Below are positions 6,132-49,617 of a DNA stretch of 64,000 bases, piece after piece; position 1 is the first letter of the stretch; the number at the start of each line of letters is the position of its first letter. Origin of the DNA: an uncultured Pseudomonadales bacterium. Lineage in GTDB: Bacteria; Patescibacteriota; Microgenomatia; UBA1400; PJMF01. Both the position numbers and the translations under genes were made by a program. The DNA lies in contig CAZUHV010000002.1 in the NCBI GenBank assembly GCA_964620965.1, positions 184,798 to 248,797 of the forward strand, in the 5' to 3' direction. The notes under the pieces are model-generated. The model was not told where the DNA came from and ran no database searches. It saw only the letters and a list, made by a program, of their open reading frames with translations.

Positions 6132-6168
6132 TATACTAGTGTTAGTATCAAAAAACAGAAAGATATCT

Positions 6169-6438
6169 ATGGGAAAGAAAAGCGGAATTGGCTCATTATT
6201 GGCTGGCATCGCTTTAGGTGCTACTGCTGTATTTTTTTCAAAAAAAGAAAATAGAGATCAAACAGTTGCTGTAGCAAAAAAAGCAAAATCAAAAGCTAAA
6301 CAAGCTGTCAAAATGGCAAAAGTTGAAGGTAAAAAAATTGCTAAGGCTGCAAAAAAAGAAAGTCAAAAAGTCGTGAGGGCTGCAAAGACTGAAACAAAAA
6401 AAGTTAAACGAGAAGTAAAGAAAATAACTAAGAAATAA
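6169..6438 (+). CDS. YtxH-like small Lys-rich membrane-anchored protein
   Basis: Internal Met MGKKSGIGSLLAGIALGATAVFFSKKENRD resembles the YtxH/DUF948 N-terminus. The tail is a Lys/Ala-rich helix. The ORF track's upstream extension overlaps the pyk end and is probably not translated. Confidence 0.5.
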   Translation: MGKKSGIGSLLAGIALGATAVFFSKKENRDQTVAVAKKAKSKAKQAVKMAKVEGKKIAKAAKKESQKVVRAAKTETKKVKREVKKITKK

Positions 6439-6453
6439 TTTTTTTACTAATAA

Positions 6454-7812: not shown

Positions 7813-7880
7813 TTTCATGTGAAGTGGATTGTACCATTTATGTTTATGGGTTATAATATACGTCTTAACAATAAGTTTAT

Positions 7881-7954
7881 GCGCCCATAGCTCAGCCGGA
7901 TAGAGCGACTGCCTTCTAAGCAGTAGGTCGTGTGTTCGAGTCACACTGGGCGTA
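7881..7954 (+). tRNA. tRNA-Arg (anticodon TCT)
   Basis: Cloverleaf traced by hand. Acceptor GCGCCCA/TGGGCGT, anticodon loop CTTCTAA, TTCGAGT T-loop. No encoded CCA. Confidence 0.85.
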
Positions 7955-7976
7955 CGTATGTTAAAATAGCGTTAGT

Positions 7977-8051
7977 GGTGGCTGTAGCTCAGTTGGTTAG
8001 AGCGTCGGGTTGTGGTCCCGAAGGTCGCCGGTTCGAACCCGGTTAGCCACC
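7977..8051 (+). tRNA. tRNA-His (anticodon GTG) with encoded G-1
   Basis: An extra 5' G precedes the acceptor GTGGCTG. Anticodon loop TTGTGGT, discriminator C. Confidence 0.85.
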
Positions 8052-8178
8052 CATCCTTTTAACCTGAAACAAGATACCCTGACTGATAATTACAAGTATT
8101 CTTCCTCTTTAAATTGGTGGATTTTTAACTTAATTTTCAGAACCAAGAAAAGGAATATTTTAATATGATGTATGTAAT

Positions 8179-9006
8179 ATGAAAATACTAGTTATAGGTG
8201 ATATACACATTGGTGATTCTAGAGAATCCACAACTCATCCGGGTATCGTTAGACAAGCAAACACACAATCGGAAAAAACTCTAAAAGATTTAATTCCAAA
8301 ACTTAATAATTTTGGTTTTGATCTAGTTGTTCATACAGGTGATGCATTAAGGGACACATACAAAAAAGAAGTTGATGAGGAAAACCTCACCAAAACACTC
8401 ACCCTATTAAGTGAACTAAAAGTGCCAACAGTTCATCTAATTGGCAATCATGAACTTAGGGCCTTCTCAAGAAATGAAGTTGAAAACATTTATAGAAAAG
8501 CAAAAGTAGATCCTATATTCTATGGCATGCAAGAATACTCCGATTTTCGCATAGTATGGTTAGATATTGAGTTGGACAGTAAAGATAAAGCATATTTACC
8601 AAAAAACACACTCAAATGGCTTGACACGCTACCCAAAGATAACAAGCCATCAATCATTTTTTCTCATTACTCATTAATACCGATAGATGAAAAAGGCACT
8701 TTTTACTTTGAGAAACAACCAGAAACCATGCACCTAGAAAATGCTACTGATGTTCGAACAGCTCTCGCCCATATAAACCCACTGATTCATATTAACGGCC
8801 ATGTGCATTTACTTACCCACCAACAAGAAAACAAAACCCACTATATTTCAGCTCCGTCTTTTTCTGAAAACATTGCGGGCGGAACTCACTTAGACAATAA
8901 TCCAGGTATCTATTCAGTTTTAGAAATAAAGAATACTACTTTTGTTTTTTCTACTTACAGCGATCAATTTACATTTGCGAAAATTCAAGGAAAACTAGAA
9001 AAATAA
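8179..9006 (+). CDS. metallophosphoesterase (calcineurin-like)
   Basis: VIGDIHIGD ... HTGDALRD ... IGNHE ... GHVH motifs. Confidence 0.8.
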   Translation: MKILVIGDIHIGDSRESTTHPGIVRQANTQSEKTLKDLIPKLNNFGFDLVVHTGDALRDTYKKEVDEENLTKTLTLLSELKVPTVHLIGNHELRAFSRNEVENIYRKAKVDPIFYGMQEYSDFRIVWLDIELDSKDKAYLPKNTLKWLDTLPKDNKPSIIFSHYSLIPIDEKGTFYFEKQPETMHLENATDVRTALAHINPLIHINGHVHLLTHQQENKTHYISAPSFSENIAGGTHLDNNPGIYSVLEIKNTTFVFSTYSDQFTFAKIQGKLEK

Positions 9007-9504: not shown

Positions 9505-9795
9505 ATGGAAATCCTAAAAACAGACAGCTTCGATAAGTGGTTAAAGAAATTAAAGGATAAAAAAGCTAAAGCAATTATCCAAGTAAGCATCAACCGCTTG
9601 ATCGAAGAAAATATAGGAAAAACAAGATCTCTAGGAGAAGGAATTCACGAAAAGAAGATTAATTATGGACCTGGATACAGACTATATTTTATAAACCACA
9701 ACCAAAGCATAATAGTTTTGCTTTGTGGAGGAGATAAATCAACCCAACAAAGTGATATTAAACAAGCGAAAATCATAGCTAAAGAAGTAAATTAA
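9505..9795 (+). CDS. type II toxin, addiction-module killer protein (Gp49/HigB-like, RelE/ParE superfamily)
   Basis: TDSFDKWLKKLKDKKAKAIIQVSINRL ... GEGIHEKKINYGPGYRLYF ... IVLLCGGDKSTQQSDIKQAK matches the COG3657/PF05973 pattern. Confidence 0.8.
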   Translation: MEILKTDSFDKWLKKLKDKKAKAIIQVSINRLIEENIGKTRSLGEGIHEKKINYGPGYRLYFINHNQSIIVLLCGGDKSTQQSDIKQAKIIAKEVN

Positions 9796-9817
9796 ATATA
9801 GAAATGAAAGGAAAAAT

Positions 9818-10090
9818 ATGAAAATCACAAAATACAACGCAACCGATTATCTAAAAACAGAAGCAGACATCAAAGAATATCTCAACGCTTCCTTTGAAAC
9901 AGGAGATAGTAAACTTATCGCTAGAGCACTTGGTGATGTTGCAAAAATAAAAGGTATGACTAAAATTGCCAAAGCTACAAAACTTGATAGAAGTAGCTTG
10001 TATAACTCTCTTACCACTGAAGGTGATCCCAAACTAAGCACTCTAACCAAACTGATTGAGAGCTTCGGTTATACTTTTTCAATTAAGTAA
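9818..10090 (+). CDS. type II antitoxin, HTH addiction-module antidote protein (COG3636-like)
   Basis: DYLKTEADIKEYLNASFETGDSKLIARALGDVAKIKGMTKIAKATKLDRSSLYNSLTTEGDPKLSTLTKLIESFGY. Lies 22 nt after the toxin with its own RBS. Confidence 0.8.
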   Translation: MKITKYNATDYLKTEADIKEYLNASFETGDSKLIARALGDVAKIKGMTKIAKATKLDRSSLYNSLTTEGDPKLSTLTKLIESFGYTFSIK

Positions 10091-19220: not shown

Positions 19221-19787
19221 TTATTTACTTGCTCTGGAATCGTACGACATTGTGTCTGTATTAATAACTAAATAGTCACCTTCTTTAACAAAAATTGGTG
19301 CTGCAACTTCAAAACCACTTTCTAGTTTCACCATTTTTCGTGCGGTACCCATTGTGTTTCCAGCAACAGCTTCTTCGGCATACTCAACACGCAATGTAAT
19401 TTTTGGAGGGAAACTAACTCCAATTGGCTTTTCTTCATAGATTGTTACATATACTTCAACTTCTGGAGTTAATAACTGTGCTTGTTCACCAACTAAGTCT
19501 AATGAAACCTCTACTTGCTCAAAAGATTGTGGATTCATAAAAACTGCAGATTCACCATCGTTGTATAAAAACTGCATTCTTTGATTTTGAACTTCTACTT
19601 GTTCAATTGATTCTGTAGATTTATATGTAAATTCCAAAGTATTGCCATTTAAAATGTTCTTCATTTTGACACGCATAAACGCAGAGCCTTTGCCAGGACT
19701 TACAAAATCTGCCTTTGTTACTAAATGAGGAACGTTCTTAAATAAAATGTAACTACCTTTTCTAATGTTTCCTGCTTTGATTATCAT
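19221..19787 (-). CDS. efp: elongation factor P
   Basis: MIIKAGNIRKGSYILFKNVPHLVTKADFVSPGKGSAFMRVKMKNI. The conserved PGKG Lys is present. Confidence 0.9.
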   Translation of the reverse strand: MIIKAGNIRKGSYILFKNVPHLVTKADFVSPGKGSAFMRVKMKNILNGNTLEFTYKSTESIEQVEVQNQRMQFLYNDGESAVFMNPQSFEQVEVSLDLVGEQAQLLTPEVEVYVTIYEEKPIGVSFPPKITLRVEYAEEAVAGNTMGTARKMVKLESGFEVAAPIFVKEGDYLVINTDTMSYDSRASK

Positions 19788-19820
19788 AGGAAGCTATTAT
19801 ACCACCAGACTAAATCGAAA

Positions 19821-20870
19821 TCAGTAGTCAAAAACATCATCTACCGGAAACAATAGCGTATCTTTAATTGATGCAGAATCTGAAAATAGCATTACCAAAC
19901 GATCAACTCCAACAGCTATGCCTCCCGTTCTTGGCATTCCAAGTCTCAATGCTTCTATAAAATCACTATCCATTTTGTACTCAACTTTTCCAAGTTTTTT
20001 GCGATATTGTAAATCTGCAATCATTCTAGCTTCTTGCTCTTCTGCATCTGTAAGTTCACTAAATGCATTTCCCAATTCAATACCACCTATAAAAAATTCA
20101 AATCTTTCTGCAAATCTTGGATCACTTTCTTTTTTCTTTGAAAGTGCAGCCTGTGAAGCAGGGTAGTCATATAAAATTGTTGGTTTTGATTTTCCCAAAT
20201 GTGGTTCAATTTCATTTAATAAAATTTGATTGTATGCTTCCTCCCAAGTTGTTTGTTCATCAACTTGATATCCTTTTTCTTTTGCTATCAAAACTATTTT
20301 TTCTTCATCTAACATGTCTTCTTTAGAAACTCCTGCATATTTTTCAAATGCTTCGCTTACAGAAATTTGTTCCCATGATGTAGATAAATCATATATAACA
20401 TCTTGGTATTTTAATTGATTTTTTCCATCCTCATTTAATTTAAGAACAGTTAAAATGTGTAGCAACAAGTTTTCACAGTCTTTCATCACATCTGTATAGT
20501 CGGCATCAACTCGATACCATTCCAAAATAGAAAATTCTGGGTTATGGAATGAGCTTAAACCTTCGCCATTCCTAAAACTTTTACATATTGTAAAAATGCT
20601 CCCCATTCCGGCAGAAAGTAACTTTTTCATTGAAAGTTCTGGACTTGTTAATAAATATGCTTTCTTATTTTCAAAACCTGGAGTTACTAATTCAGACTCA
20701 AAAACTTCTAAATATGGTTCTGTTCCCGGACTTTGAACAAGAAGGGGGGTGTCGACTTCATGAAATCCTTCTTTTTTAAAAAATTCACGAATAGCATCAA
20801 CAACCTGTTCTCGAATCAAAAACGGTTTTAATAATTCTGAGTTATTTCTTAATTTTTTCCAGTTTTTCAT
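19821..20870 (-). CDS. epmA: EF-P--(R)-beta-lysine ligase EpmA (LysRS paralog)
   Basis: TSPELSMKKLLSAGMGSIFTICKSFRNGEGLSSFHNPEFSILEWY is very close to the E. coli EpmA motif-2 region. About 350 aa, adjacent to efp. Confidence 0.8.
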   Translation of the reverse strand: MKNWKKLRNNSELLKPFLIREQVVDAIREFFKKEGFHEVDTPLLVQSPGTEPYLEVFESELVTPGFENKKAYLLTSPELSMKKLLSAGMGSIFTICKSFRNGEGLSSFHNPEFSILEWYRVDADYTDVMKDCENLLLHILTVLKLNEDGKNQLKYQDVIYDLSTSWEQISVSEAFEKYAGVSKEDMLDEEKIVLIAKEKGYQVDEQTTWEEAYNQILLNEIEPHLGKSKPTILYDYPASQAALSKKKESDPRFAERFEFFIGGIELGNAFSELTDAEEQEARMIADLQYRKKLGKVEYKMDSDFIEALRLGMPRTGGIAVGVDRLVMLFSDSASIKDTLLFPVDDVFDY

Positions 20871-29319: not shown

Positions 29320-30333
29320 ATGACACAGATAAAAGCTCCAAACAATGATAAAATACAACCTGTACTTATGATAAACAAAACCCTCTATAACACAGTCGCA
29401 CTTGGTGGAACATTTGATCACCTGCACGAAGGCCACAAACAATTTTTGCTTTTTGCCGCAGAAATTTCCCAAAACCTCATTATTGGTGTAACTGATCAAC
29501 AAATGACACTTACAAAACAGCATAGTGAGACAATTCAACCTACACATGTAAGAAAACAGGCTGTAGCTAATTTTTGTAACCAACATGGAATTCAAAACAG
29601 AGTTATTACAATTTTTGATCCATTTGGCCCAACAATAGAAGAAAATAGTAGAATTCAAGCAATTGTGTGTACAACAGATACTCTTGCAGGAGCAAATAAA
29701 ATCAATGAAATCAGAGATAAACTTCACATGCATAATCTGCCAATCCATGTTCATACACTTAAAAAAGACCAACTTGGAATCGATACAATCAGTGCAGAAA
29801 GAATTAGAAATGGGGAAATAGATAGAGCTGGAAGAGTCTATGCATCTGTTTTTAATACAACCCTTACGCTCTCAGAAAAAAGTCGTGCTTTTTTCTCTAA
29901 ACTTCATGGTACCATAATTTCAAAACCAACTCAGAGCGAAGTAAACTCAAAAGTAATAGTTGTTGGAGATTCCACTCTGGAAACATTTATTCAAAATAAT
30001 TGGAAATATGATCTGGGAATTTTTGATGGCAAACGACAAAGAAAAGAGTATAGTTCTGAAATTCTCAATCAGCTAGAAAACCCTAAAATCATTGGGAATA
30101 CTCCTGGCTCTATAGAACAACAAGCAGTGCAAATACTTGCAGATTGGAAATTAAACCAAAACTTCCAGCACATTTTTATTGAAGGTGAAGAAGACTTACT
30201 AGCTGTTGCAACAATACTCCTAATGCCACTTGGCACCCAAGTATATTATGGACAACCAAATGAAGGTATTGTTGAATGCGTCATTACAGAAGACATTAAA
30301 GAAGCTTTCTTTGACGTACTTAGTTCTAATTAA
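29320..30333 (+). CDS. cytidylyltransferase-fold protein: archaeal-type PPAT-like N-domain (GGTFDHLHEGH) fused to DUF359-like C-domain (possible GTP-dependent dephospho-CoA kinase)
   Basis: HxGH nucleotidyltransferase motif GGTFDHLHEGHKQFLLFAAE at the N-terminus. The C-terminal VIVVGDSTLETFIQNNWKYDLGIFDGKRQRKE resembles the VGD...DGKTKR signature of COG1909/DUF359. Confidence 0.5.
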   Translation: MTQIKAPNNDKIQPVLMINKTLYNTVALGGTFDHLHEGHKQFLLFAAEISQNLIIGVTDQQMTLTKQHSETIQPTHVRKQAVANFCNQHGIQNRVITIFDPFGPTIEENSRIQAIVCTTDTLAGANKINEIRDKLHMHNLPIHVHTLKKDQLGIDTISAERIRNGEIDRAGRVYASVFNTTLTLSEKSRAFFSKLHGTIISKPTQSEVNSKVIVVGDSTLETFIQNNWKYDLGIFDGKRQRKEYSSEILNQLENPKIIGNTPGSIEQQAVQILADWKLNQNFQHIFIEGEEDLLAVATILLMPLGTQVYYGQPNEGIVECVITEDIKEAFFDVLSSN

Positions 30334-33531: not shown

Positions 33532-35418
33532 TTATAACTCCATAAACTGATAGAGCTCACCATCCACAAACCCACGACTTCTATAGTATTCTCGAGTTCC
33601 AACCGCAGAAATAACTGCTAATTTTTTAAATTGTTTTTTTGTAGCAATTTCTTTTGCCAAACCAATCAGCTTTGTACCTAAACCTAAGTGCTGTGCCTTT
33701 GCATCTTTCTTTTCGCCAACATCCACAACATGACCATAGACGTGAATTTCTCTAATAATAGCAGAGTTTTCGAGCTCAGAAATAAAGTTGCTTACTTTTG
33801 GTAAACTCAAACGTAAAAAGGCCAAAATTTTTGTTCCATCAGTTTGTTCCAATTTTTTCCCAGTTTTTTTATTAAGCACTGTATCAGCATCCACAACATA
33901 CTGTAAAAATAATTCTGTACTTACTGGAGTAGAGTAGATTACTTTTTCAAGTCGAACATCTTTTGGATCAAAGCTGTAATTTTTAATTTCCCTTGCACGA
34001 ATATCTTGTGAATTTTCACCAGCTTTCAATAGTTTTTGTTCTGCAATTTGTCTAAAGTTTGTTAGCTTGTTGCCTTCAACAATATCTGTAGAGGGAATAT
34101 CTCTGATCACTCTAGTTAAACGACAATATTCTGGTGTGTTTAGTAAACAATACGAAAGCACATCCAAAAGTTCTTCATAAGAATATGGTTTCCATAATCC
34201 TTTTTTATAATATTGCATTAATTCAGCACTTCCAATTAAAGAACAAGGATAAATTTTTAATTCATCTGGTCTAAACCCTAAATCACTAAATAACTTAGCA
34301 TAATCTTTTTTATCATTTTCGACTGAAGATCCATACAAGTTTGCCATCCAATGTGCGTGAATTTTGAATCCTGCCTGTCGCAATAACTTCACTGCAGTTC
34401 TCGTAGCTGCAACTCCATGCCCGCGTTTATTTTTTGTGAGAACAGAATCATCTAAACTTTGAAATCCAATTTGTGTTTTTGTACAACCAAGCTTTCGAAT
34501 ACGAATAACTTCTTTTTCTGAAATATTGTCAGGGCGAGTCTCTACAACTAACCCAACATTTCTTACGTCTGCAGTTTCGTTTATTTTTTGTTGTGTAAAT
34601 AACTCCTCCCAAGTTGCAGATTGATATGCGTCAAAACCACCAATTTTTTCTGGAGCAACATATAACTGCGAAACTGTTTGATTATATGTCTTATCAATTT
34701 TTCCACCTTCAATTTTGAAACCATCCATAGTAGCTTTATTTTTTTCAGGGTTATTCGTTAAAACAGCTGCAGATTTTTCTCTTAATTTTTGTTCTAAATC
34801 TTCATAGTGTGCTTCAATGTTTTTCCTATCATCTTTTTTACCAAACTCATTGAGCGCTCTAAAACATTCTTTTATAAACCAAATTTGGTATGCTTCTGGA
34901 TAAAACGACCAAGTCCCTCCAAGTACAATTAACTCCGCTTTATTCACAGAGTGACCGATATTTTGCAAAGCTTGTAAGCGATTATATGTCTGCAAATAGG
35001 GGTCAAACCAATTTCTTTCTGCACGCTGAGCACCAGGTTCATCAGAAAGGTAACTTTTTGGCATTCTAATATCACTTGGACAAAAGATACATTTACCCGG
35101 ACAAGGAAATGGCTTTGTTAATACAGTAATTGGCGCAACACCAGATTGTGTTCTTGTTGGTTTTTTTCGAATTGCTTCTAAAATTTTGTCATTTAACGGA
35201 GCAATTTTATATTTTTTTGCCGTTTTGCTGTTTTCAGTAATACCACGATACCCGATAACAATCTCATCTTTAGAAAACTGACCTCCATCAGCTTTTAGAT
35301 GTTGTTTAGTTAATTGAGCCAATTTTCTTTCAGAAATTGTTTCTAGTTTTTCCAAATCTTTAATTAATGGAATCAATTGCTCAATATGCTTGGTATAATC
35401 AAACTTGTACTTTGTCAT
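33532..35418 (-). CDS. Elp3-like radical SAM + GNAT acetyltransferase (tRNA U34 carboxymethylation-type)
   Basis: Radical-SAM Cys cluster PFPCPGKCIFCPSD. C-terminal GNAT HVYGHVVDVGEKKDAKAQHLGLGTKLIGLAKEIATKKQFKKLAVISAVGTREYYRSRGF aligns with the Elp3 KAT domain. Confidence 0.75.
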   Translation of the reverse strand: MTKYKFDYTKHIEQLIPLIKDLEKLETISERKLAQLTKQHLKADGGQFSKDEIVIGYRGITENSKTAKKYKIAPLNDKILEAIRKKPTRTQSGVAPITVLTKPFPCPGKCIFCPSDIRMPKSYLSDEPGAQRAERNWFDPYLQTYNRLQALQNIGHSVNKAELIVLGGTWSFYPEAYQIWFIKECFRALNEFGKKDDRKNIEAHYEDLEQKLREKSAAVLTNNPEKNKATMDGFKIEGGKIDKTYNQTVSQLYVAPEKIGGFDAYQSATWEELFTQQKINETADVRNVGLVVETRPDNISEKEVIRIRKLGCTKTQIGFQSLDDSVLTKNKRGHGVAATRTAVKLLRQAGFKIHAHWMANLYGSSVENDKKDYAKLFSDLGFRPDELKIYPCSLIGSAELMQYYKKGLWKPYSYEELLDVLSYCLLNTPEYCRLTRVIRDIPSTDIVEGNKLTNFRQIAEQKLLKAGENSQDIRAREIKNYSFDPKDVRLEKVIYSTPVSTELFLQYVVDADTVLNKKTGKKLEQTDGTKILAFLRLSLPKVSNFISELENSAIIREIHVYGHVVDVGEKKDAKAQHLGLGTKLIGLAKEIATKKQFKKLAVISAVGTREYYRSRGFVDGELYQFMEL

Positions 35419-35469
35419 AAATTTGTTCTAGAACACTCTATTATACTCGACAGAGTCAAGAAAACCAAA

Positions 35470-36243
35470 ATGGATATAGAATTAATTAAGCGTTTGAATC
35501 AATTAAATACTGATTTTTATAACGCTACCGCAATTGATTTCGATGACAGTCGACACTACTTTTGGCAAGGATGGGATAAAATTCCACCATTTTTAGATGG
35601 CTTTGATGATATTCGTGTTGCAGACATTGGCTGTGGTAATGGTAGGTTTGGACAGTTTTTATTAGAAAAATGTCCACAAGTCAAACTGAGCTATACAGGC
35701 ATTGATGCTAATAAAAGATTACTTTCATTTGCTGAAGAAAATTTGCAAGGGAAAATTCCTGCACTTCATTTAGATCAAGTTGATATCATTCAAAACTTAT
35801 TAGATAATGAGGATTTTCTTAACAACCAAAAATTTCAACTCATTACTTGTTTTGGTGTATTCCACCATGTCCCAAGTTTTGAGTTGCGATTAAAACTACT
35901 TAAGTATCTGTTGAGCAAACTTTCTGCAAACGGTACACTCATTGTTTCAGTATGGATGTTTATGGAGTATGAACGATTTCGAAAAAAAATTATAAGAACT
36001 GATGAAAAAAATGATTCCCAAAAACTAGAAAAATACTCTCTTAACCTTATCAACCTAGAAAAAAATGACTATATTTTAGATTGGAAACGGGGAACTGAGG
36101 CACTACGATTTTGCCATTATATTGATGAACAAGAACAAAATTTACTCTTAGAAAAATCTGGTGCAAAACTTAAAAAATCTTTTAGAGCTGATGGCAAAGA
36201 AAACGATGTAAACCAGTATCTTATACTGTCACACCAAAGCTAG
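35470..36243 (+). CDS. class I SAM-dependent methyltransferase, Trm9/ALKBH8-like
   Basis: Motif I VADIGCGNGRFG. Motif II-like FQLITCFGVFHHVPSFELRLKLLKYL. Divergent from Elp3 with about 50 nt between the starts. Confidence 0.55.
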   Translation: MDIELIKRLNQLNTDFYNATAIDFDDSRHYFWQGWDKIPPFLDGFDDIRVADIGCGNGRFGQFLLEKCPQVKLSYTGIDANKRLLSFAEENLQGKIPALHLDQVDIIQNLLDNEDFLNNQKFQLITCFGVFHHVPSFELRLKLLKYLLSKLSANGTLIVSVWMFMEYERFRKKIIRTDEKNDSQKLEKYSLNLINLEKNDYILDWKRGTEALRFCHYIDEQEQNLLLEKSGAKLKKSFRADGKENDVNQYLILSHQS

Positions 36244-36278
36244 AATATCTTAGTTTTTAGGTGTATGATACTGCTGTC

Positions 36279-37862
36279 ATGAAAACATTTATTCCACTCC
36301 TTTTTATTATTTTTTCAATTATAGGAATCGCAGATTCTTCTTTTATTACCTATGAAAAATTTGCCGGTATTGTTCCAGATTGTGGAACAGGATTTGATTG
36401 TGGAGCAGTACTAAATAGCAAATGGTCTAGTATCGGCCCAATTCCATTATCTCTTTTAGGGCTTGTATATTACCTCACCGTTTTTGCTCTTGGAGTTTTT
36501 GTTGTGTTGGAGGTCGATTTACAAAAACCTTTACATTCTTTTTTTGACAAACTCAAAATCAAACAAGATTCTATTCTTCGTCAGCTAACAACTGCAGAAC
36601 TTTTACTACTTGTCACTACTTTTGGATTTGGTTTTTCAATTTACTTGGTAAGCCTCATGGCCTTCATTATTGGAGAATGGTGTAAATACTGTTTAATTAG
36701 CGCAGCAGCTTCATCACTATTATTCATTACTAGCTTAGTTTTTTTTGCAAAAGTGAAACAACAATCTCCGTTTGTTTTAAAATTTTTAAGTTTTAAATTT
36801 ATTCACTGGGGATATACAACAATAGTAAAACCATTATTTTTTCTTTTTGATGCAGAGACAGTTCACAACTCATGCACCAACTTTGGAAAACACTTAGGTA
36901 AACTTAAAATCACTCAAGCTCTTACAATTATCGCATTTTCGTTTAGACACTCAGCAAATACAAAAACATTCAATGGGATAACTTTTCCAAACCAAGTTGG
37001 ACTTGCTGCTGGGTTTGATTATAACGGCGAACTTACTAGTATATTACCAAGCTTAGGAATGGGATTTCACACTATTGGGACTGTCACATATCTCCCATAT
37101 GAAGGAAATCCAAAACCACGTTTAGGAAGATTTTTAGAATCAAAGGCTCTTTTGGTTAATAAGGGATTAAAATCATTAGGCGCAGTTGCAATTGCAAAAA
37201 AACTTACTGGTATTCGGTTTCAAATTCCAACAGGCATTTCTATTGCCAGCACAAATAAATACTTCGAAAATGAACAAGAACAAATCTTGGACATTCTTAA
37301 AACATTTACTATTTTCGAAAACTCAAAGGTACAACACGCATACTACGAACTCAATATCAGTTGTCCAAATACATTTGGCGGAGAACCGTTTACCACTCCA
37401 AAAAGATTAGAAAAACTACTTACTGCTCTAGAATCTCTACACGTTTCAAAACCAATTTATGTCAAAATGCCAATTGATCAAAGTAAAAAAGAAACGTTAG
37501 ATCTTTTAAATATTATTGACCAATACAAAATTGCTGGAGTGATCTTTGGTAATCTTACAAAAGATAAAACAAATCCAGATGTTACAGAGACTGAAAGAAA
37601 GCGTTGGAAAACTGTAAAAGGAAACTTAAGCGGCAAACCAACTTGGAAACGTTCAAATGAACTTATTGAACTCACAAAAAGAAACTTTAAAAATAGATTC
37701 ACAATTATTGGTACTGGTGGAATTTTTAATGGAGCAGACGCCATAACAAAAATAAATCTTGGAGCAGATTTAGTTCAAATAATCACAGGAATGATTTTTG
37801 AAGGTCCACAAACCATTGGTGAAATCAATTTAAAACTTGCTGAAAAAAATATAAAGCAGTAA
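36279..37862 (+). CDS. fusion protein: N-terminal VKOR (vitamin K epoxide reductase) membrane domain + C-terminal dihydroorotate dehydrogenase-like (PyrD-family) flavoenzyme domain
   Basis: VKOR features: loop Cys pair PDCGTGFDCG, GIPLSLLGLVYY, TM CXXC GEWCKYCL. DHOD features: FPNQVGLAAGFDYNGE, GFHTIGTVTYLPYEGNPKPRLGRF, NISCPNT (Cys base), IGTGGIFNGADAITKINLGADLVQIITGMIFEGP. Confidence 0.7.
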   Translation: MKTFIPLLFIIFSIIGIADSSFITYEKFAGIVPDCGTGFDCGAVLNSKWSSIGPIPLSLLGLVYYLTVFALGVFVVLEVDLQKPLHSFFDKLKIKQDSILRQLTTAELLLLVTTFGFGFSIYLVSLMAFIIGEWCKYCLISAAASSLLFITSLVFFAKVKQQSPFVLKFLSFKFIHWGYTTIVKPLFFLFDAETVHNSCTNFGKHLGKLKITQALTIIAFSFRHSANTKTFNGITFPNQVGLAAGFDYNGELTSILPSLGMGFHTIGTVTYLPYEGNPKPRLGRFLESKALLVNKGLKSLGAVAIAKKLTGIRFQIPTGISIASTNKYFENEQEQILDILKTFTIFENSKVQHAYYELNISCPNTFGGEPFTTPKRLEKLLTALESLHVSKPIYVKMPIDQSKKETLDLLNIIDQYKIAGVIFGNLTKDKTNPDVTETERKRWKTVKGNLSGKPTWKRSNELIELTKRNFKNRFTIIGTGGIFNGADAITKINLGADLVQIITGMIFEGPQTIGEINLKLAEKNIKQ

Positions 37863-43584: not shown

Positions 43585-46500
43585 ATGTCAGCTAAAACTG
43601 AAGTTAAAAAACTAGATAAACAAAAAGACACCTATCAACAAATCGAGGAAACTGTTGCCGATCTAAAAAAAATAAAACTTGAACTTAGAGTATTGAGGGC
43701 AAAAAAAGAAAAAACAACACAAGACATCGATACGATAAAAAGAATAGAACAGGTTATCTCTAGACTTGAAGATCGCGTAGAACAAAGAAGAGATTCCCTC
43801 TCAGTGAGTCAAAAAAACAAAATAATCAAAGAACAATATAGGAATATTTTTGAGACAGACATTCCTGTAAGAAGAATCATTGGCAAAGATATTGTAGCAA
43901 TCTTCATGCCTGAAACGTTTTTGAGAGAGCAAATTAGCCAACTACAAAACTTAGAAGAAAAAATTACAAGTAGCACTGATACTCAAAACCCTCAAAACAG
44001 TGAAGATATAAATGAATACTTTATCCTTCTTAAGAAAGTAAATCAATTTTTAGTTGTTCTTGATAATCTTAAAGTTAATATTCCCGAACCCCACAAAAAA
44101 ACAATTACTAGAATTCAAAGAGGTATGATCAAACTTCCTGTTTATGGAGCAGAGGCCGTTTCAAAACTTTTCATTAGATCAAAAAAAGAAGTTAATAAAC
44201 GGATAAAAAATGTTGAGCATTCACTAGAAAATTATATTACATTTCAAGGCCTAGAAAGCGTCAGAAAAACTTTGCTTTCTGTGCCATCATTCTTTGATGG
44301 AAAAAATAAAGAAATAGAAGAACAAATACGTACTGCGAAAGAAGATGAACTTCCAGGATTATACTCAAAAATTTTAGCTGAACCCTTTGAAATAATTAGA
44401 GAAGCTGGCTTAGATCCTAACCTTCCAGAGAACCACCCAAAAATTATTTACAAACTTTTAACAACAAATAATCGCCATAGCTTTGCTCAAAATGCAGCAT
44501 TCTTATTTGAGATAGATAATATTCAATCTATTATTCCTAAACTAGACCAAGCTATACATAAACACGAAATTATTGCTTCTCTACTTAACATGGAATTTTC
44601 ATACTGGAGAAGATTCTCTCTACTAAACTTAGAAACTATTAAATCAACTTCTCAGAAAATGACTTCTGAAGTTCTCAGGGCAATTACTTTTGATGAAACT
44701 CAAATTGTACCAAGTCTTATTGATCTAGAAAAAATTACTAAGTCTCTTTCTCCTAGACCAGAAACAGATATAAAAGAAGAAATAGATCTACAACATATCC
44801 AAGATGCTGAGCTAAAAAAACTAATACAAGAAGATTTACAACTATTTGAGAAATTCCCAACAAATGATAGAGAAGTGCTTATTTTTGTGCAACAGTACAA
44901 AGAAATAGTTAGTAGATATAAAAACCTCAATCCAGAAAAAGTAAAAAAACTTATTCTAGAATACAAGAAAAAAATTGATGCAAGAATGCAGATATTATTA
45001 CTTAACCAAATTGTTGAATCTGCAATTGGTGAGACGATGATCTACGACTTTCATGAATGGCAAGTAGCAGACAATAATTTAGGAAGAATACTTAACAATA
45101 ACAATATTTGTTCAGTTTTTACAAGTTATAATAGGGGACTTATTAACTCCCTCAGCAAAGAAAAAGAAAACGCTACTGTTCCTAGAAGTGGCTTTGCAGT
45201 TCTAAAAAAATCAGAAAACCCAGAAAGAAAATTTGACGTTTCATTAAGAGTCTATAATAATACTTCCCGATATAATGCCTTTCATTCAACAATGCTTGAA
45301 TGTTGGATCGATTCTGAAGGGGACCAAAAAAGAACAAAACAACTATGGGAAAAAAGAATACAAAAAATCGAAAAAACCCTTCCAAGTTTTTATCCCGAAG
45401 AACTTCTTTTACATATAATAACAGTTTCAAGAAAAACCCAATCTAAGCTAGATATAGACTTTTTTGACGGTATCACAAAAACTTTAATCGAAAAATACTC
45501 TGCCTCACAAGGAGGTGAGATAAATACTAACCACTTAAGTGATCTTGTGAGCTATGTAACAAGTCATATGGATCTTTCTCAAAAATCAATACTAGATTGG
45601 TGGAAAAATAGTTACTGTACACAATACCAAGCTCCAAGTTTTGAGGAAGCACTCTCTAGAGTTCATACACTTCCTTGTATTCTGCTTCCATCAGAAATAT
45701 CAAGCTCTCAAAATGTTAATGAACTTCAACAAGAACTTACACAAATAACTAATGAACTAAGATCTCAATTTGTTACAGCATCAATGCTCATAACTTATGG
45801 GGTTAACCAAAACGGAGACTTTGCACTATCTTCAAGTTGTGACCACTCGAATTGGGATGGAAAACAAAGTGGAGATATGGTTGAAAAAGTTATTACTAAA
45901 GTTATAGACTCAACAAAACAGACTCAACTTAATCAATCAGAAATTCTTCAAGATACAACTACCCACGTTGACACTACTGTAATTACTTCAAGTGAAAAAG
46001 AGAAAGCTGTTTTAGAACAATCTGGGAATTACCAAATACAATCGTATGTAGAAGCAGAAGGGTTTGTGAGGATCTGTGATGATATTGGTCAAATGGTTTC
46101 TAGACTAGTTTCAGAAGGTAAAATAAACCCAGATACAAAAATTAAAAATCCAGCTGTTATCATGCAATTAATGCTTGTAAATGTGTATAGAGACATTCTT
46201 TCAAAAATGAAGGATGAAGATGGAACAGAACACTTTACTCAAACCCAAAATATAGGAATGTTACTAGGAAACCCTGATATAACAAAAGACCTAGACTTAG
46301 CCCCAATTCAAGGTGGTTTTGATTTACAACTCTTTAATAATCTTGATCTTAAACAAAAAGAAGAATATCTTGTTTCACTTGCTCTTTTATTTGATATTTC
46401 ATTAAAACATACAAATATGGAGCTTATCAAAAAAGTTGCAGAATCTATTCCATTTAAAGGAATTCAAAACTTTCTTAATGATCTTTCAAGAAGGAAAATA

Positions 46501-46824
46501 CTACTTGGTGGATTAAAGGATTTTGCTGGAGAATTTATGATTTCAAACTTCGGCCTTCCAAGAGTCAAAGGTGGAAAAATAAAATTAGAAAAAAAGCATG
46601 GCTTCCAAATTATTAGAAACTCTGGACCTGCCCAAACTGACTTCCAAAAAGGTTCTATGACTATAGTAGGAGCCTTAGAAATGGCTAATACATTTTATTT
46701 ATCAATTTGTTATAAAAATAAGAGAAATGCTGCGGCAATACATATTGCAAAAGAATTCAAAAAGTACATTGAATCACTAGATGTGAACTATTACATGGAC
46801 TGGAAACAAAAAAACACCAACTAA
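43585..46824 (+). CDS. large orphan protein (1079 aa) with N-terminal coiled coil, function unknown
   Basis: Uninterrupted 3.2 kb ORF with its own intrinsic terminator. No signal peptide, P-loop or other motif recognised. Confidence 0.6.
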   Translation: MSAKTEVKKLDKQKDTYQQIEETVADLKKIKLELRVLRAKKEKTTQDIDTIKRIEQVISRLEDRVEQRRDSLSVSQKNKIIKEQYRNIFETDIPVRRIIGKDIVAIFMPETFLREQISQLQNLEEKITSSTDTQNPQNSEDINEYFILLKKVNQFLVVLDNLKVNIPEPHKKTITRIQRGMIKLPVYGAEAVSKLFIRSKKEVNKRIKNVEHSLENYITFQGLESVRKTLLSVPSFFDGKNKEIEEQIRTAKEDELPGLYSKILAEPFEIIREAGLDPNLPENHPKIIYKLLTTNNRHSFAQNAAFLFEIDNIQSIIPKLDQAIHKHEIIASLLNMEFSYWRRFSLLNLETIKSTSQKMTSEVLRAITFDETQIVPSLIDLEKITKSLSPRPETDIKEEIDLQHIQDAELKKLIQEDLQLFEKFPTNDREVLIFVQQYKEIVSRYKNLNPEKVKKLILEYKKKIDARMQILLLNQIVESAIGETMIYDFHEWQVADNNLGRILNNNNICSVFTSYNRGLINSLSKEKENATVPRSGFAVLKKSENPERKFDVSLRVYNNTSRYNAFHSTMLECWIDSEGDQKRTKQLWEKRIQKIEKTLPSFYPEELLLHIITVSRKTQSKLDIDFFDGITKTLIEKYSASQGGEINTNHLSDLVSYVTSHMDLSQKSILDWWKNSYCTQYQAPSFEEALSRVHTLPCILLPSEISSSQNVNELQQELTQITNELRSQFVTASMLITYGVNQNGDFALSSSCDHSNWDGKQSGDMVEKVITKVIDSTKQTQLNQSEILQDTTTHVDTTVITSSEKEKAVLEQSGNYQIQSYVEAEGFVRICDDIGQMVSRLVSEGKINPDTKIKNPAVIMQLMLVNVYRDILSKMKDEDGTEHFTQTQNIGMLLGNPDITKDLDLAPIQGGFDLQLFNNLDLKQKEEYLVSLALLFDISLKHTNMELIKKVAESIPFKGIQNFLNDLSRRKILLGGLKDFAGEFMISNFGLPRVKGGKIKLEKKHGFQIIRNSGPAQTDFQKGSMTIVGALEMANTFYLSICYKNKRNAAAIHIAKEFKKYIESLDVNYYMDWKQKNTN

Positions 46825-46837: not shown

Positions 46838-46844
46838 GTATTTG

Positions 46845-46918
46845 AGCGGGAAACGGGATTCGAACCCGCGACCTCTTCCTTGGCAAGGAAGCGCTCTAGC
46901 CAGCTGAGCTATTCCCGC
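46845..46918 (-). tRNA. tRNA-Gly (anticodon GCC)
   Basis: The reverse complement folds with acceptor GCGGGAA/TTCCCGC and anticodon loop TTGCCAA. Confidence 0.85.
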
Positions 46919-46999
46919 AATTTCTATTTAAAGAACAAGAAGTATTTTACACTTGATGTACAAAAAAGTGAATACCTTAAATTGGTGTACAATAAAGCT

Positions 47000-47671
47000 A
47001 TGAAATCAAGTCTATTCAGACTACTTGTCTTACCACTTACAATAGTGGGGGTGCTCTATGTTTCGTTATTTTTAGGTAGCCAAAGAAAACCAACTAATAT
47101 CGCAAACCAAGTAACTGCTGAAAATCAAATAGAGCTCAAAACTTCAGATAATACAGAAAACAATGAAACTACTAAAGAAAAAAAAGAACCTTCAAACCCA
47201 ACTCCAGAAAATATAAAAGTTTTAGGAGTAGAAGATATACAAAAAAATACTGATTCTCAAAACGCTTCCATAGAGTTTGAAACTCAAATCTTATATAACC
47301 TTATAAACTCATACAGAGAAGAAAATAATTTAAACAAGCTTTTTGCTAATAAGCTTTTGGAAGACAGTGCTCGTCGAAAACTCAAAGATATGATTGATAA
47401 AAATTACTTCAGACATGCCGACACTGCAAATAATGAATCATGGTACTTATTTAATGCCGCTGGATATCACTATGAACTTGCCGGAGAAAATCTCTCTACC
47501 GGATACAATACCCCTTGGCAAGTGTTCTCTGCATGGCAAAGAAGTGAAAAACACAACTCTCAATTACTGAAACCAGAATACTTAGATATGGGGCTTGCAG
47601 TAAATTGTGAAACATATGAAGTTAGAGATAAACCTGCTTGCATAGTAGTATTACATTTAGGTTTACGTTAA
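47000..47671 (+). CDS. CAP/SCP/PR1-like domain secreted protein (YkwD-like)
   Basis: Internal Met MKSSLFRLLVLPLTIVGVLYVSLF (signal/anchor). CAP motifs NSYREENNL ... HYELAGENLS ... WQVFSAWQRSEKHNSQLL. The track ORF's first 120 nt overlap tRNA-Gly and were trimmed. Confidence 0.7.
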   Translation: MKSSLFRLLVLPLTIVGVLYVSLFLGSQRKPTNIANQVTAENQIELKTSDNTENNETTKEKKEPSNPTPENIKVLGVEDIQKNTDSQNASIEFETQILYNLINSYREENNLNKLFANKLLEDSARRKLKDMIDKNYFRHADTANNESWYLFNAAGYHYELAGENLSTGYNTPWQVFSAWQRSEKHNSQLLKPEYLDMGLAVNCETYEVRDKPACIVVLHLGLR

Positions 47672-47691
47672 AATAAAAATAGGAGACCTTA

Positions 47692-47850
47692 ATGAATAAT
47701 CAATCATACTTTCAATCACCAGAATTCAAAAGAATGACGGGGAATGCCACAGACAGTGGAGTCAAATTTCTTTTTAAGTGGATTGGGATTGGAATCAAAA
47801 GCTTTGCTGAGTTTATTAAAATGATGGTGTATTCATTACTCGGTAAGTAG
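47692..47850 (+). CDS. small ORF (52 aa) with C-terminal hydrophobic helix, hypothetical
   Basis: AGGAGA RBS 5 nt upstream of the ATG. Followed by an intrinsic terminator. Below the ORF-track length cutoff. Confidence 0.35.
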   Translation: MNNQSYFQSPEFKRMTGNATDSGVKFLFKWIGIGIKSFAEFIKMMVYSLLGK

Positions 47851-47874
47851 TATCTGCCTTTTTGCAATAAAGAA

Positions 47875-47906
47875 TAAAAAAAGAATCCTGTTTAGGATTC
47901 TTTTTG
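47875..47906. terminator. bidirectional intrinsic terminator (serves small ORF on + and the tRNA array on -)
   Basis: aaaaaaaGAATCCTgtttAGGATTCttttt. Confidence 0.7.
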
Positions 47907-47982
47907 TGGTGCCAAGCTGAAGAGTCGAACTTCAATCTCGTGTTTTTCAGACACGCGCCGTGACCACCTTGGCTAGCTTGGC
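47907..47982 (-). tRNA. tRNA-Phe (anticodon GAA), CCA encoded
   Basis: The reverse complement reads GCCAAGC...CTGAAAA...TTCGACT...GCTTGGCACCA. Confidence 0.85.
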
Positions 47983-48071
47983 ATGATAGTTATTTTACAC
48001 TATCTCAAATCTGGTAAAAGAGGGTATTCTCATTTTAAGAATAGAAAAGAATAAAATCTACCAAATTTTTG

Positions 48072-48145
48072 TGGATGCTGAGGGACTCGAACCCCCGACA
48101 CCTGCGATGTAAACGCAGTGCTCTAACCAACTGAGCTAAGCATCC
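48072..48145 (-). tRNA. tRNA-Val (anticodon TAC)
   Basis: The reverse complement reads GGATGCTTAGCTCAGTTGGTTAGAGC...TTTACAT...GGTTCGAGTCC...AGCATCCA. Confidence 0.85.
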
Positions 48146-48182
48146 AAATTGTTTACAAACAATTTTTTCAAAACAAATATTG

Positions 48183-48264
48183 TGCCCAGGAGAGGACTTG
48201 AACCTCCACAGCTTGCGCCATACGCACCTCAAGCGTACGTGTATACCAATTTCACCACCTGGGC
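48183..48264 (-). tRNA. tRNA-Leu (anticodon GAG)
   Basis: Long variable arm. Anticodon loop TTGAGGT, acceptor GCCCAGG/CCTGGGC. Confidence 0.8.
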
Positions 48265-48356
48265 ATCTGTATCAATGTGCAATCCCTAATTTTAAAACAA
48301 TTAGATCTGTATTATAGAACAAAAGTTCTTTTTTTTATATACCTAGTATTACTGTA

Positions 48357-48644
48357 TTAGACTACTACGTAGTAGGATCCTTGAGTACTGGAAACAAATT
48401 CTATATTCAAACCCTGAGGTAACATAAAAAGCAATAAATCTTTTGTTAAATATGAACGTGCATCACTAAATCTAAGAGCTATATTCTCGTTAGCAAAAAG
48501 TTCATTAAGAAGAGTAACCGGAATCTGCACACCCCGTTGAAGAGTGATCCCTCTTTGCTGTAGCAATGTTTGCAATGCAACAGCAACATCTTTACCTTGA
48601 GATGTTAATTGTATCTGGGTTTCAATTTCGTGTCTTTGAACCAT
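48357..48644 (-). CDS. hypothetical small protein inside tRNA array
   Basis: Internal Met MVQRHEIETQIQ... The track ORF reads through tRNA-Leu(CAG) and was trimmed. No family recognised. Confidence 0.3.
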   Translation of the reverse strand: MVQRHEIETQIQLTSQGKDVAVALQTLLQQRGITLQRGVQIPVTLLNELFANENIALRFSDARSYLTKDLLLFMLPQGLNIEFVSSTQGSYYVVV

Positions 48645-48667
48645 AATTTTTTTCAATTTTATTTTTG

Positions 48668-48748
48668 TGCCGGAGAGAGGACTCGAACCTCCATGAATTG
48701 CTTCACACGTACCTGAAACGTGCGCGTCTACCATTTCGCCACTCCGGC
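48668..48748 (-). tRNA. tRNA-Leu (anticodon CAG)
   Basis: Long variable arm. Anticodon loop TTCAGGT, acceptor GCCGGAG/CTCCGGC. Confidence 0.8.
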
Positions 48749-48810
48749 ATCTAAAAAATTTTAACTTGAAGAGATTCTAACATTTTTCATACTTTTTTTC
48801 CTGAGTAAAG

Positions 48811-49320
48811 ATGAAAAGATCTTATTTCGAAAATCGTTTTGAATTTCGAAGACATTTGAATTATAGTCAACCTATGAAGAAAAAATGTCAACATTGCTTT
48901 CTATTGCTGGATGAAGAAAACTTTAATTGGAAGGTTAAGAACATTAAAAGAGCCTCTTATTGCAAAACTTGTTCGAGAATCTATATAAAAAACCATTATA
49001 AAGAAAATAAAAATTATTACTTAGAAAAGGCAAAAAAAAGAAATAAAATAAATAAAGAAGCTCTACAAAAATATATTGCAAATTACCTCAATTTTCATCA
49101 TTGTATTGATTGTGGTGAACAAAACATATTAGTTTTAGAATTTGATCATAGAGAAAGAAATAAAAAAAGTTATAATATCAGTCACATAATGAGAAATAGC
49201 ATGACTATCGAAAAACTCGCTAATGAAATCAAAAAATGCGACGTTAGATGTGCAAACTGTCATAGAATAAAAACAGAAAAAGAAATTAACAGCTGGAAAA
49301 TACAGTATTTGCGCCAGTAG
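48811..49320 (+). CDS. HNH endonuclease (free-standing, homing-endonuclease-like)
   Basis: N-terminal Zn knuckle CQHC...CKTC. HNH core HHCIDCGEQNILVLEFDHRERNKK ... CANCHRIK. The stop codon lies within the first 10 nt of tRNA-Arg(TCG). Confidence 0.75.
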   Translation: MKRSYFENRFEFRRHLNYSQPMKKKCQHCFLLLDEENFNWKVKNIKRASYCKTCSRIYIKNHYKENKNYYLEKAKKRNKINKEALQKYIANYLNFHHCIDCGEQNILVLEFDHRERNKKSYNISHIMRNSMTIEKLANEIKKCDVRCANCHRIKTEKEINSWKIQYLRQ

Positions 49321-49388
49321 CTCAATGGATAGAGCACCTGTCTTCGGAACAGGGTTTGTTGGGGGTTCGAGTCCCTCCTGGCGCACCA
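49311..49388 (+). tRNA. tRNA-Arg (anticodon TCG), CCA encoded
   Basis: Acceptor GCGCCAG/CTGGCGC, anticodon loop CTTCGGA, 7-nt variable loop, ends ...GCACCA. Confidence 0.8.
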
Positions 49389-49474
49389 AACTTTCAATTA
49401 AGTCTAATCTCACACTTCATACCTCTGGAATTTTTAGTTTTGAATTGATATAATATCCCTCTACCAAAGAGAGT

Positions 49475-49548
49475 GGGTCGGTAGCTCAGTTGGTTAGAGC
49501 GTTTGCCTCTTAAGCAAAATGTCGAGGGTTCGAGCCCCTCCCGACTCA
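49475..49548 (+). tRNA. tRNA-Lys (anticodon CTT)
   Basis: GGGTCGGTAGCTCAGTTGGTTAGAGC...CTCTTAA...GGTTCGAGCCC...CCGACTCA. Confidence 0.85.
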
Positions 49549-49617
49549 CAATAGATCACTAAAAAGATTTAAGAAAATCCCCTTGTTAATTAAACTATAA
49601 AAAGATACCATGCCTGT

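Follow-up and report, generated by a model that had tools for sequence, protein, structure and literature searches.

A long-form Elp3 and a divergently encoded Trm9-like methyltransferase: a predicted two-gene pathway for wobble-uridine modification in bacteria

In eukaryotes, Elongator (Elp3) forms 5-carboxymethyluridine (cm5U) at the wobble uridine of tRNA (U34), and Trm9-Trm112 or ALKBH8 then converts it to 5-methoxycarbonylmethyluridine (mcm5U). Both eukaryotic and archaeal Trm9 proteins need Trm112. The archaeal Trm9-Trm112 makes mcm5U (in Haloferax volcanii, HVO_1032), and its Trm112 is needed in vivo; in Sulfolobus solfataricus, the genes for Elp3 and Trm9 are clustered (PMC6144793). 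Here we describe a bacterial locus for which we predict the same two catalytic activities. The locus lies in a 64-kb stretch of contig CAZUHV010000002.1 from assembly GCA_964620965.1 (this whole stretch is "the window"). It comprises two adjacent, divergent open reading frames (ORFs) on opposite strands, one for an Elp3 and the other for a distant homolog of Trm9.

In the literature that we searched, mcm5U and the route from Elp3 to Trm9 are described for eukaryotes and for one archaeon. Bacterial Elp3 is described there as rare, and the only work on it has been in vitro, with the protein of a single organism. (A 2026 paper states that "numerous bacteria" have Elp3.) In the literature that we searched on Elp3 in Patescibacteria and Chloroflexi, and on bacterial Elp3 in connection with Trm9 or mcm5U, we came across neither an account of an Elp3-Trm9 pair in a bacterium nor a report of bacterial mcm5U. 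A related reaction is carried out by CmoM (SmtA of E. coli), which is the class I methyltransferase that forms a methyl ester in the bacterial pathway for 5-carboxymethoxyuridine (cmo5U); its substrate is a modified wobble uridine, which it methylates at the carboxyl group. Like CmoM, the methyltransferase from our locus belongs to class I and is predicted to form a methyl ester on the carboxyl group of a wobble uridine.

Unlike the eukaryotic pathway, the bacterial genes are adjacent and divergent, the Elp3 contains a 77-residue helical insertion, and we saw no Elp1, Elp2, Elp4-6, Kti11-13, or Trm112. The methyltransferase resembles eukaryotic Trm9 in that it aligns over nearly the full length of yeast Trm9 and conserves seven of eight essential residues, and it differs in being only ~24% identical, in having a cysteine at the position of Y243, and in having an insertion specific to its family. 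As with the stand-alone Elp3 of archaea, we saw no other Elongator subunits here, the elp3 gene is clustered with a Trm9-type gene, and the best match among solved structures is the Elp3 from Methanocaldococcus infernus (MinElp3). Unlike the archaeal system, no Trm112 was found here, and the bacterial long-form Elp3 is without the Zn-binding cysteines (it has DIRAREI instead). We rate the pair as extending a known pathway into bacteria, because the Sulfolobus genes are clustered, a bacterial Elp3 is already known, and automated KO-type (KEGG Orthology) annotation at the Joint Genome Institute (JGI) already labels both genes. The variations on the known pathway are the long form of Elp3, a possible independence from Trm112, and the tyrosine-to-cysteine change.

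We think it probable that Elp3 makes cm5U34 and that the methyltransferase turns cm5U34 into mcm5U34, so that the pair would be a conserved bacterial module of two genes that modifies U34. Elp3 would use its [4Fe-4S] cluster and S-adenosylmethionine (SAM) to form a 5'-deoxyadenosyl radical. The radical would activate acetyl-CoA that is bound in the lysine acetyltransferase (KAT) domain, and a carboxymethyl group would be placed on C5 of U34 to give cm5U. The Trm9-like methyltransferase would then use another SAM to methyl-esterify the carboxyl group of cm5U, which would give mcm5U34. The cm5U step is established Elp3 chemistry, and we infer it here from the intact catalytic residues. The mcm5U34 step is predicted from the distant homology to Trm9, the conservation of Trm9's active-site residues, and the conserved linkage of the two genes.

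The elp3 gene is on the minus strand (33532-35418 of the window, with an ATG start at 35418) and encodes 628 amino acids. The methyltransferase gene is on the plus strand. The mechanically predicted ORF (35377-36243) begins with a TTG and would overlap the start of elp3. We instead place the gene at 35470-36243 (257 amino acids), because in all 18 homologs that we aligned, the first residue corresponds to the ATG at 35470. With this start, the intergenic region (35419-35469) leaves 51 nt between the two start codons, which agrees with the initial annotation of a divergent pair whose starts are about 50 nt apart. The spacer is similarly short at homologous loci, where it is mostly 15-120 nt. 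As the intergenic region is short and is common to both genes, co-regulation of elp3 and the methyltransferase gene seems plausible: the spacer may be a shared or overlapping promoter region, that is, a compact control region for both genes. A scan for promoter consensus sequences found no promoter-like site inside the 51-nt spacer, and the sites that it found were no more common than in shuffled sequence.

The strongest evidence for a functional connection is the conserved synteny. We scanned one genome per species with a profile of the methyltransferase family, which gave 383 relatives. We kept 80 loci, and 74 of these had enough flanking sequence to be informative. Elp3 is encoded within 10 kb of the methyltransferase in 49 of the 74 loci, and the two genes are divergent and adjacent in 42 of them, with spacers that are mostly 5-120 nt. 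In a Dojkabacteria bin (L009), elp3 is directly downstream of the methyltransferase gene in the same direction, with a gap of 4 nt. We also ran the reverse scan, with Elp3, against metagenome contigs. This gave 80 loci, some of which are near-duplicates; among the 72 informative loci, 58 encode the methyltransferase (54 divergent and adjacent, and 4 more nearby).

The pair is found in diverse bacteria. The Patescibacteria that carry it include Microgenomates, Paceibacteria, Dojkabacteria, and Saccharibacteria, and the Chloroflexota include Anaerolineae, Ardenticatenia, Thermoflexus, and Aggregatilineales. Other carriers are a complete genome from TM6/Dependentiae and a bin that is labelled as Marinacidobacterales. 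The linkage to Elp3 is maintained down to 31-40% identity of the methyltransferase. When we clustered all of the ORFs from 81 loci, no third gene was conserved across phyla, and the neighbors MazG-like, RarA, RecQ, and VKOR-DHODH (vitamin K epoxide reductase fused to dihydroorotate dehydrogenase) were limited to 15-21 of the 81 loci. The pairing of Elp3 with this methyltransferase is far beyond chance.

One of the carriers is a cultured bacterium, Aggregatilinea lenta (Chloroflexota; GCA_003569045.1, BFCB01000003.1, positions 6133-8708 of our locus L161). It has the divergent pair with a 47-nt spacer. Its Elp3 and its methyltransferase are 52% and 36% identical, respectively, to those in the window.

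Several of the metagenome-assembled genomes with the pair have titles that do not fit their gene content. Records titled "uncultured Pseudomonadales bacterium" (L002, L008, L013, L018, L035, L036, and others) have a Patescibacteria-like gene order and an Elp3 that is 53-63% identical to ours, and a "Limisphaerales" record (L070) is similar, with an Elp3 that is 64% identical. These are probably mislabelled bins with misassigned taxonomy. The closest relatives of the window's own proteins are from Patescibacteria metagenome bins (Woesebacteria and Pacebacteria).

The Elp3 in the window has both a radical SAM domain and a KAT (GNAT) domain. It matches the ELP3 family of NCBIfam (TIGR01211) at 442.8 bits, as compared to a cutoff of 350, with residues 76-621 aligning to positions 48-515 of the 522 positions in the profile. 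Pfam identifies the Radical_SAM and Radical_SAM_C domains. Among the sequences in PDB, the best match is MinElp3 (6ia8; E = 1.8e-91, 310 bits), followed by the characterized Elp3 from the bacterium Dehalococcoides mccartyi (DmcElp3; 5l7j; E = 1.9e-79, 271 bits), and the Elp3 proteins from human, mouse, and yeast score 221-242 bits. Fold comparisons agree. The AlphaFold2 model has a mean confidence (pLDDT) of 84.7, and its top 11 matches in PDB by Foldseek are all Elp3 proteins, with TM-scores of 0.83-0.89. After these, the E-values fall from 1e-28 to 5e-05, and the matches are to other radical SAM enzymes.

The catalytic residues of this Elp3 are conserved. The motif for the [4Fe-4S] cluster, CPGKCIFC (C106, C110, and C113; 35080-35103, minus strand), aligns to the Fe-S loops of MinElp3 and DmcElp3. 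These three cysteines and the SAM-binding GGT motif (G167-G168-T169) are invariant in 42 and 46 aligned homologs. The KAT domain, which binds acetyl-CoA, spans residues ~480-628 (33535-33981, minus strand) and includes E557, H559, the blocking loop (561-577), QHLGLG (576-581), and Y611/Y612. In DmcElp3, the acetyl-CoA pocket is formed by K77, K193, E386, H388, and Y441 (PMC6367351). These align to K160, K352, E557, H559, and Y611, all of which are invariant; K160 and K352 are in the radical SAM domain, outside the span of the KAT domain. The initial annotation listed loss of the KAT domain's acetyl-CoA pocket as a possible flaw in its assignment. This is not the case, because all five pocket residues are intact and the blocking loop is the same length as in DmcElp3 (residues 390-406). 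The score for the ELP3 family, the matches to known structures by both sequence and fold, and the conserved pocket confirm that the ORF encodes a full Elp3, as had been proposed, and that its catalytic equipment is intact.

Although this protein shares the Fe-S motif (CPGKCI(F/Y)CP), the pocket residues, and the length of the blocking loop with DmcElp3, it is a longer form. DmcElp3 has 459 amino acids, with neither the N-terminal extension nor the insertion, and it retains the Zn-binding cysteines. Relative to DmcElp3, our Elp3 has an 84-residue N-terminal extension. It also has a 77-residue insertion in the radical SAM domain (residues 196-272; 34603-34833, minus strand), which is apparent from the phmmer alignments. 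The alignment to MinElp3 breaks between residues 195 and 273 of our protein, which correspond to residues 169 and 171 of MinElp3, and the alignments to DmcElp3 and human Elp3 are similar. The insertion is not in archaeal, D. mccartyi, or eukaryotic Elp3. It is predicted to form a helical subdomain (pLDDT of 74-90), and its motifs KTYNQTVS.LY and GFD.YQ.A.W.EL are conserved in Patescibacteria, Chloroflexota, and TM6. Three regions of this protein stand out: residues 196-272, residues 1-84, and residues ~470-478.

The Zn-binding cysteines have been described as fully conserved among archaeal and bacterial Elp3 proteins and are missing from eukaryotic Elp3 (PMC6367351). Where MinElp3 has RCRCIRCRE and DmcElp3 has KCRCIRCRE in the linker, our protein has NSQDIRARE, and the Zn motif is missing throughout the clade of long forms. 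The Zn-binding triad is not a catalytic feature.

The initial annotation described Elp3 as uncommon in bacteria. This is accurate for cultured bacteria only. The long form is not rare, and it is very common in metagenomes of Patescibacteria. At E ≤ 1e-20, we found at least 7,999 homologs of the long-form Elp3. Among the matches listed, 120 of 120 are long forms, with 62-100% identity to our Elp3, and they are from Patescibacteria wherever the source names an organism.

The identity of the methyltransferase is less obvious from curated families. Pfam gives generic matches only (Methyltransf_12, 31, 23, 25, and 11), besides low-scoring matches to MTS, FtsJ, and GidB. No NCBIfam model reaches its cutoff (Tam, UbiG, and CmoB are at ~34 bits), and neither library has a Trm9-specific match to this protein. 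The profile searches that the initial annotation suggested give a clear result for Elp3, but for Trm9 the curated libraries return just generic methyltransferases. As for names assigned by annotation pipelines, JGI labels many of the homologs as "tRNA (uracil-5-)-methyltransferase TRM9," and NCBI labels them as class I methyltransferases.

The methyltransferase belongs to a large and well-defined family. A search with the family profile found 1,892 clusters (E ≤ 1e-30) among 1.84 billion representatives, and among the 150 matches listed, all are family members. The invariant residues of the family include F16, Y17, W32, D79, H132, H133, R140, W162, W205, R213, H216, D241, and N248. The motifs that had been described as Trm9-like are present: VADIGCGNG at residues 50-58 and GVFHHVPSFELRLKLLKYL at residues 129-147. 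The former is SAM-binding motif I (35617-35643, plus strand), in which D52, G56, and N57 are invariant and G54, C55, and G58 are nearly so. The latter includes a pair of histidines, H132-H133 (35863-35868, plus strand), which align to H115/H116 of yeast Trm9 and are both invariant across 86 sequences. Further along, the strand R213-F-C-H216 (36106-36117, plus strand) aligns to the strand R241-Y-Y-H244 of yeast Trm9, and both R213 and H216 are invariant.

Comparisons that use the family alignment place this methyltransferase near Trm9, with weak similarity. When we compared a 19-sequence profile of the family to 177,635 sequences from PDB, the top match was Trm9 from Yarrowia (YlTrm9; 5cm2_Z; E = 2.8e-10, 43 bits). 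The alignment to 5cm2_Z covers positions 32-230 of the profile, which extends past the Rossmann core. The runners-up (36 bits or lower) mostly match the N-terminal part and the Rossmann core, with alignments that end at around position 160-170 of the profile. Using hhalign, we compared an 86-sequence alignment of the family to yeast Trm9, and obtained a probability of 98.8% (E = 6e-17, score 114.7) over 206 columns, which cover residues 16-278 of Trm9. As a control, a generic class I methyltransferase from a related locus gave 96.8% and a score of 72.8, over 104 columns of the core. (We validated the sequence of yeast Trm9 that we used by the residue numbering in PMC4678810 and by its match of 244 bits to YlTrm9.) In the AlphaFold2 model of the methyltransferase (pLDDT of 96.6), an extra beta-hairpin (residues 200-204 and 212-216) bears the DYILDW and RFCH motifs. 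It includes a strand that matches strand B of Trm9 (PMC4678810).

The active site of Trm9 is also conserved. In yeast Trm9, alanine mutants of eight residues are zymocin resistant: R29, D72, H116, W145, W168, R241, Y243, and N271. H116A abolishes activity and R241A strongly lowers it, and a role in holding the uracil ring and the carboxylate has been proposed for R29, H115/H116, R241, and N271 (PMC4678810). Seven of the eight essential residues align to conserved residues in our family. Six of these are invariant: D79 (aligned to D72 of Trm9), H133 (H116), W162 (W145), W205 (W168, in the alignment to YlTrm9 only), R213 (R241), and N248 (N271). The seventh, R28 (R29), is nearly invariant. Together with the family profile, the hhalign result, and the linkage to Elp3, these residues support the proposal that this is a Trm9-type methyltransferase. 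In these comparisons it groups with neither UbiE nor UbiG, and clustering with UbiE is what the initial annotation had said would refute its proposal.

Several observations weigh against a Trm9-type reaction. Regarding sequence similarity, the lead of 5cm2_Z over the next match to the family profile is modest, at only ~7 bits. With the single methyltransferase sequence as the query, Trm9 (5cm2_Z) ranks 11th in PDB (E = 0.0075), and Trm9 does not stand out in fold searches. In the C-terminal part, only short motifs resemble Trm9 (W, D...W, RY(C/Y)H, and D/N), and a profile of the C-terminal third (residues 156-257) retrieves no Trm9 from PDB at E ≤ 10. In the active site, the tyrosine of Trm9 (Y243) is not conserved and aligns to a nearly invariant cysteine (C215). 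Also, hhalign puts W168 elsewhere in yeast Trm9, which bears a long insert. Regarding gene neighborhoods, in 25 of the 74 methyltransferase loci, mostly from Anaerolineae, no Elp3 is encoded within 10 kb, and in ~17 loci from Patescibacteria, the methyltransferase gene is followed on the same strand by VKOR-DHODH. Finally, a motif search alone, by regular expression, found nothing like Trm112 (Cys-knuckle/GIP) across the window and loci L001-L080; the small intergenic ORFs also have no such motif.

The initial annotation called for a search for Trm112 and for Kti11/12. We saw none of them. A search with motif regular expressions found no Kti11 or Kti12 in the window or the loci, and Pfam found no KTI12, MnmE, MnmG, or MnmA domains among the scanned ORFs of at least 120 amino acids in the window. 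Because the window is only 64 kb, we cannot claim that these partners are absent from the genome.

Another explanation is that the methyltransferase does act in an Elp3 pathway but with a chemistry unlike that of Trm9: it might methylate the modified U34 at a different atom, or methylate a neighboring nucleotide, or it might form a derivative that is new to bacteria. Synteny implies a functional link rather than a particular reaction. A different chemistry might also account for the cysteine in place of the tyrosine, for the insertion of 30-40 amino acids that this family has between W162 and the DYILDW strand, and for the lack of a Trm112 in the motif search. On the other hand, the equivalents of R29, H115/H116, R241, and N271 are all conserved (all are invariant, except for R28, which is nearly so), and the carboxyl group is the simplest substrate for a SAM-dependent methyltransferase that is encoded beside a cm5U synthase. 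We consider a different chemistry to be unlikely.

It is less likely still that this is some other RNA or protein methyltransferase (such as an RlmG-like enzyme for rRNA) whose position next to elp3 reflects nothing more than two housekeeping genes of translation sharing a promoter region. RlmG is the top match in PDB for the single sequence (5.8e-05), and the low-scoring Pfam matches (MTS, FtsJ, and GidB) would fit as well. However, the RlmG-type matches cover just the Rossmann core, and with the family profile they score below Trm9. Furthermore, a pair of unrelated housekeeping genes is not expected to remain adjacent across phyla, and in one case in a different gene order (L009), while all of the other neighbors change.

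We reject the idea that the methyltransferase is a quinone (UbiE/UbiG/MenG-like) or similar small-molecule enzyme that serves the VKOR-DHODH gene, and consider it very improbable: although the two genes are consecutive in those ~17 Patescibacteria loci, JGI calls a few homologs benzoquinol methylases, and UbiG has an NCBIfam score of 34 bits, the scores are far below the cutoffs (34.4 vs. 103 for UbiG, TIGR01983; 19.1 vs. 216 for UbiE, NF001244), the family profile favors Trm9 (43 bits) over a UbiE-related protein (33 bits) and UbiG (23 bits) in PDB, and the VKOR-DHODH neighbor is confined to the loci whose methyltransferase sequence and gene order are most like those of the window, while the linkage to Elp3 spans phyla (in A. 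lenta, a MutY-like gene that overlaps the methyltransferase gene by 8 nt is downstream instead).

If the pair does form mcm5U34, as we predict, then its likely substrates are tRNAs with U34. The window contains 14 tRNA genes, and eight of these have a T at that position: Arg-TCT, Gly-TCC, Leu-TAA, Pro-TGG, Gln-TTG, Val-TAC, Arg-TCG, and Leu-TAG. We tentatively suggest a broader role, which we view as possible but somewhat doubtful: a long-form Elp3 with a Trm112-independent Trm9-like enzyme might serve as the principal route to xm5U34 (5-methyluridine derivatives at U34), sufficient on its own, in Patescibacteria, many Anaerolineae, and Dependentiae. In such a system, the helical subdomain and the N-terminal extension of Elp3 would replace the accessory subunits of eukaryotes, the product would be mcm5U or a new derivative, and the pathway might replace the canonical one of MnmE/MnmG.

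The rest of the window (~33% G+C) contains ordinary bacterial housekeeping genes, such as those for EF-P, RarA, RecQ, and pyruvate kinase. Seven of the tRNA genes are packed into 2.7 kb (46844-49549). The VKOR-DHODH ORF (533 amino acids; 36261-37862, plus strand) is 17 nt 3' of the methyltransferase gene on the same strand, and it fuses a VKOR domain (PF07884, residues 14-158) to a class-2 quinone-dependent dihydroorotate dehydrogenase (PF01180, residues 235-528). A 337-residue ORF (29320-30333, plus strand) has an archaeal-type phosphopantetheine adenylyltransferase domain (NF001985, 120 bits) and a DUF359 / GTP-dependent dephospho-CoA kinase domain, that is, the last two steps of CoA biosynthesis, of the archaeal kind, in one fused bacterial protein. 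At 19221-20870 (minus strand), the EF-P gene adjoins a gene for a truncated protein of 349 amino acids that resembles class II Lys/Asp/Asn-tRNA synthetases; this layout resembles an EpmA/PoxA-type pair for modifying EF-P. Two small adjoining ORFs (96 and 90 amino acids; 9505-10090, plus strand) resemble, on visual inspection, a toxin-antitoxin pair of the HigB/HigA type. Finally, an ORF of 1,079 amino acids (43585-46824, plus strand) has no match in Pfam at E ≤ 1e-5.

Overall, the prediction of an Elp3-Trm9 pathway in bacteria is clear, widely distributed, and testable, although it would not shock a specialist. It can be tested directly because the cultured A. lenta carries the module. If it is correct, then thousands of uncultured bacteria with very small genomes, as well as some cultured Chloroflexota, would decode with a wobble modification of the type used by eukaryotes and archaea. 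The two proteins would also be a minimal system for the chemistry of Elongator, possibly with a Trm9 that is independent of Trm112. And the presence of this module in bacteria would bear on the early evolutionary distribution of the two pathways for modifying U34, that of MnmEG and that of Elp3.

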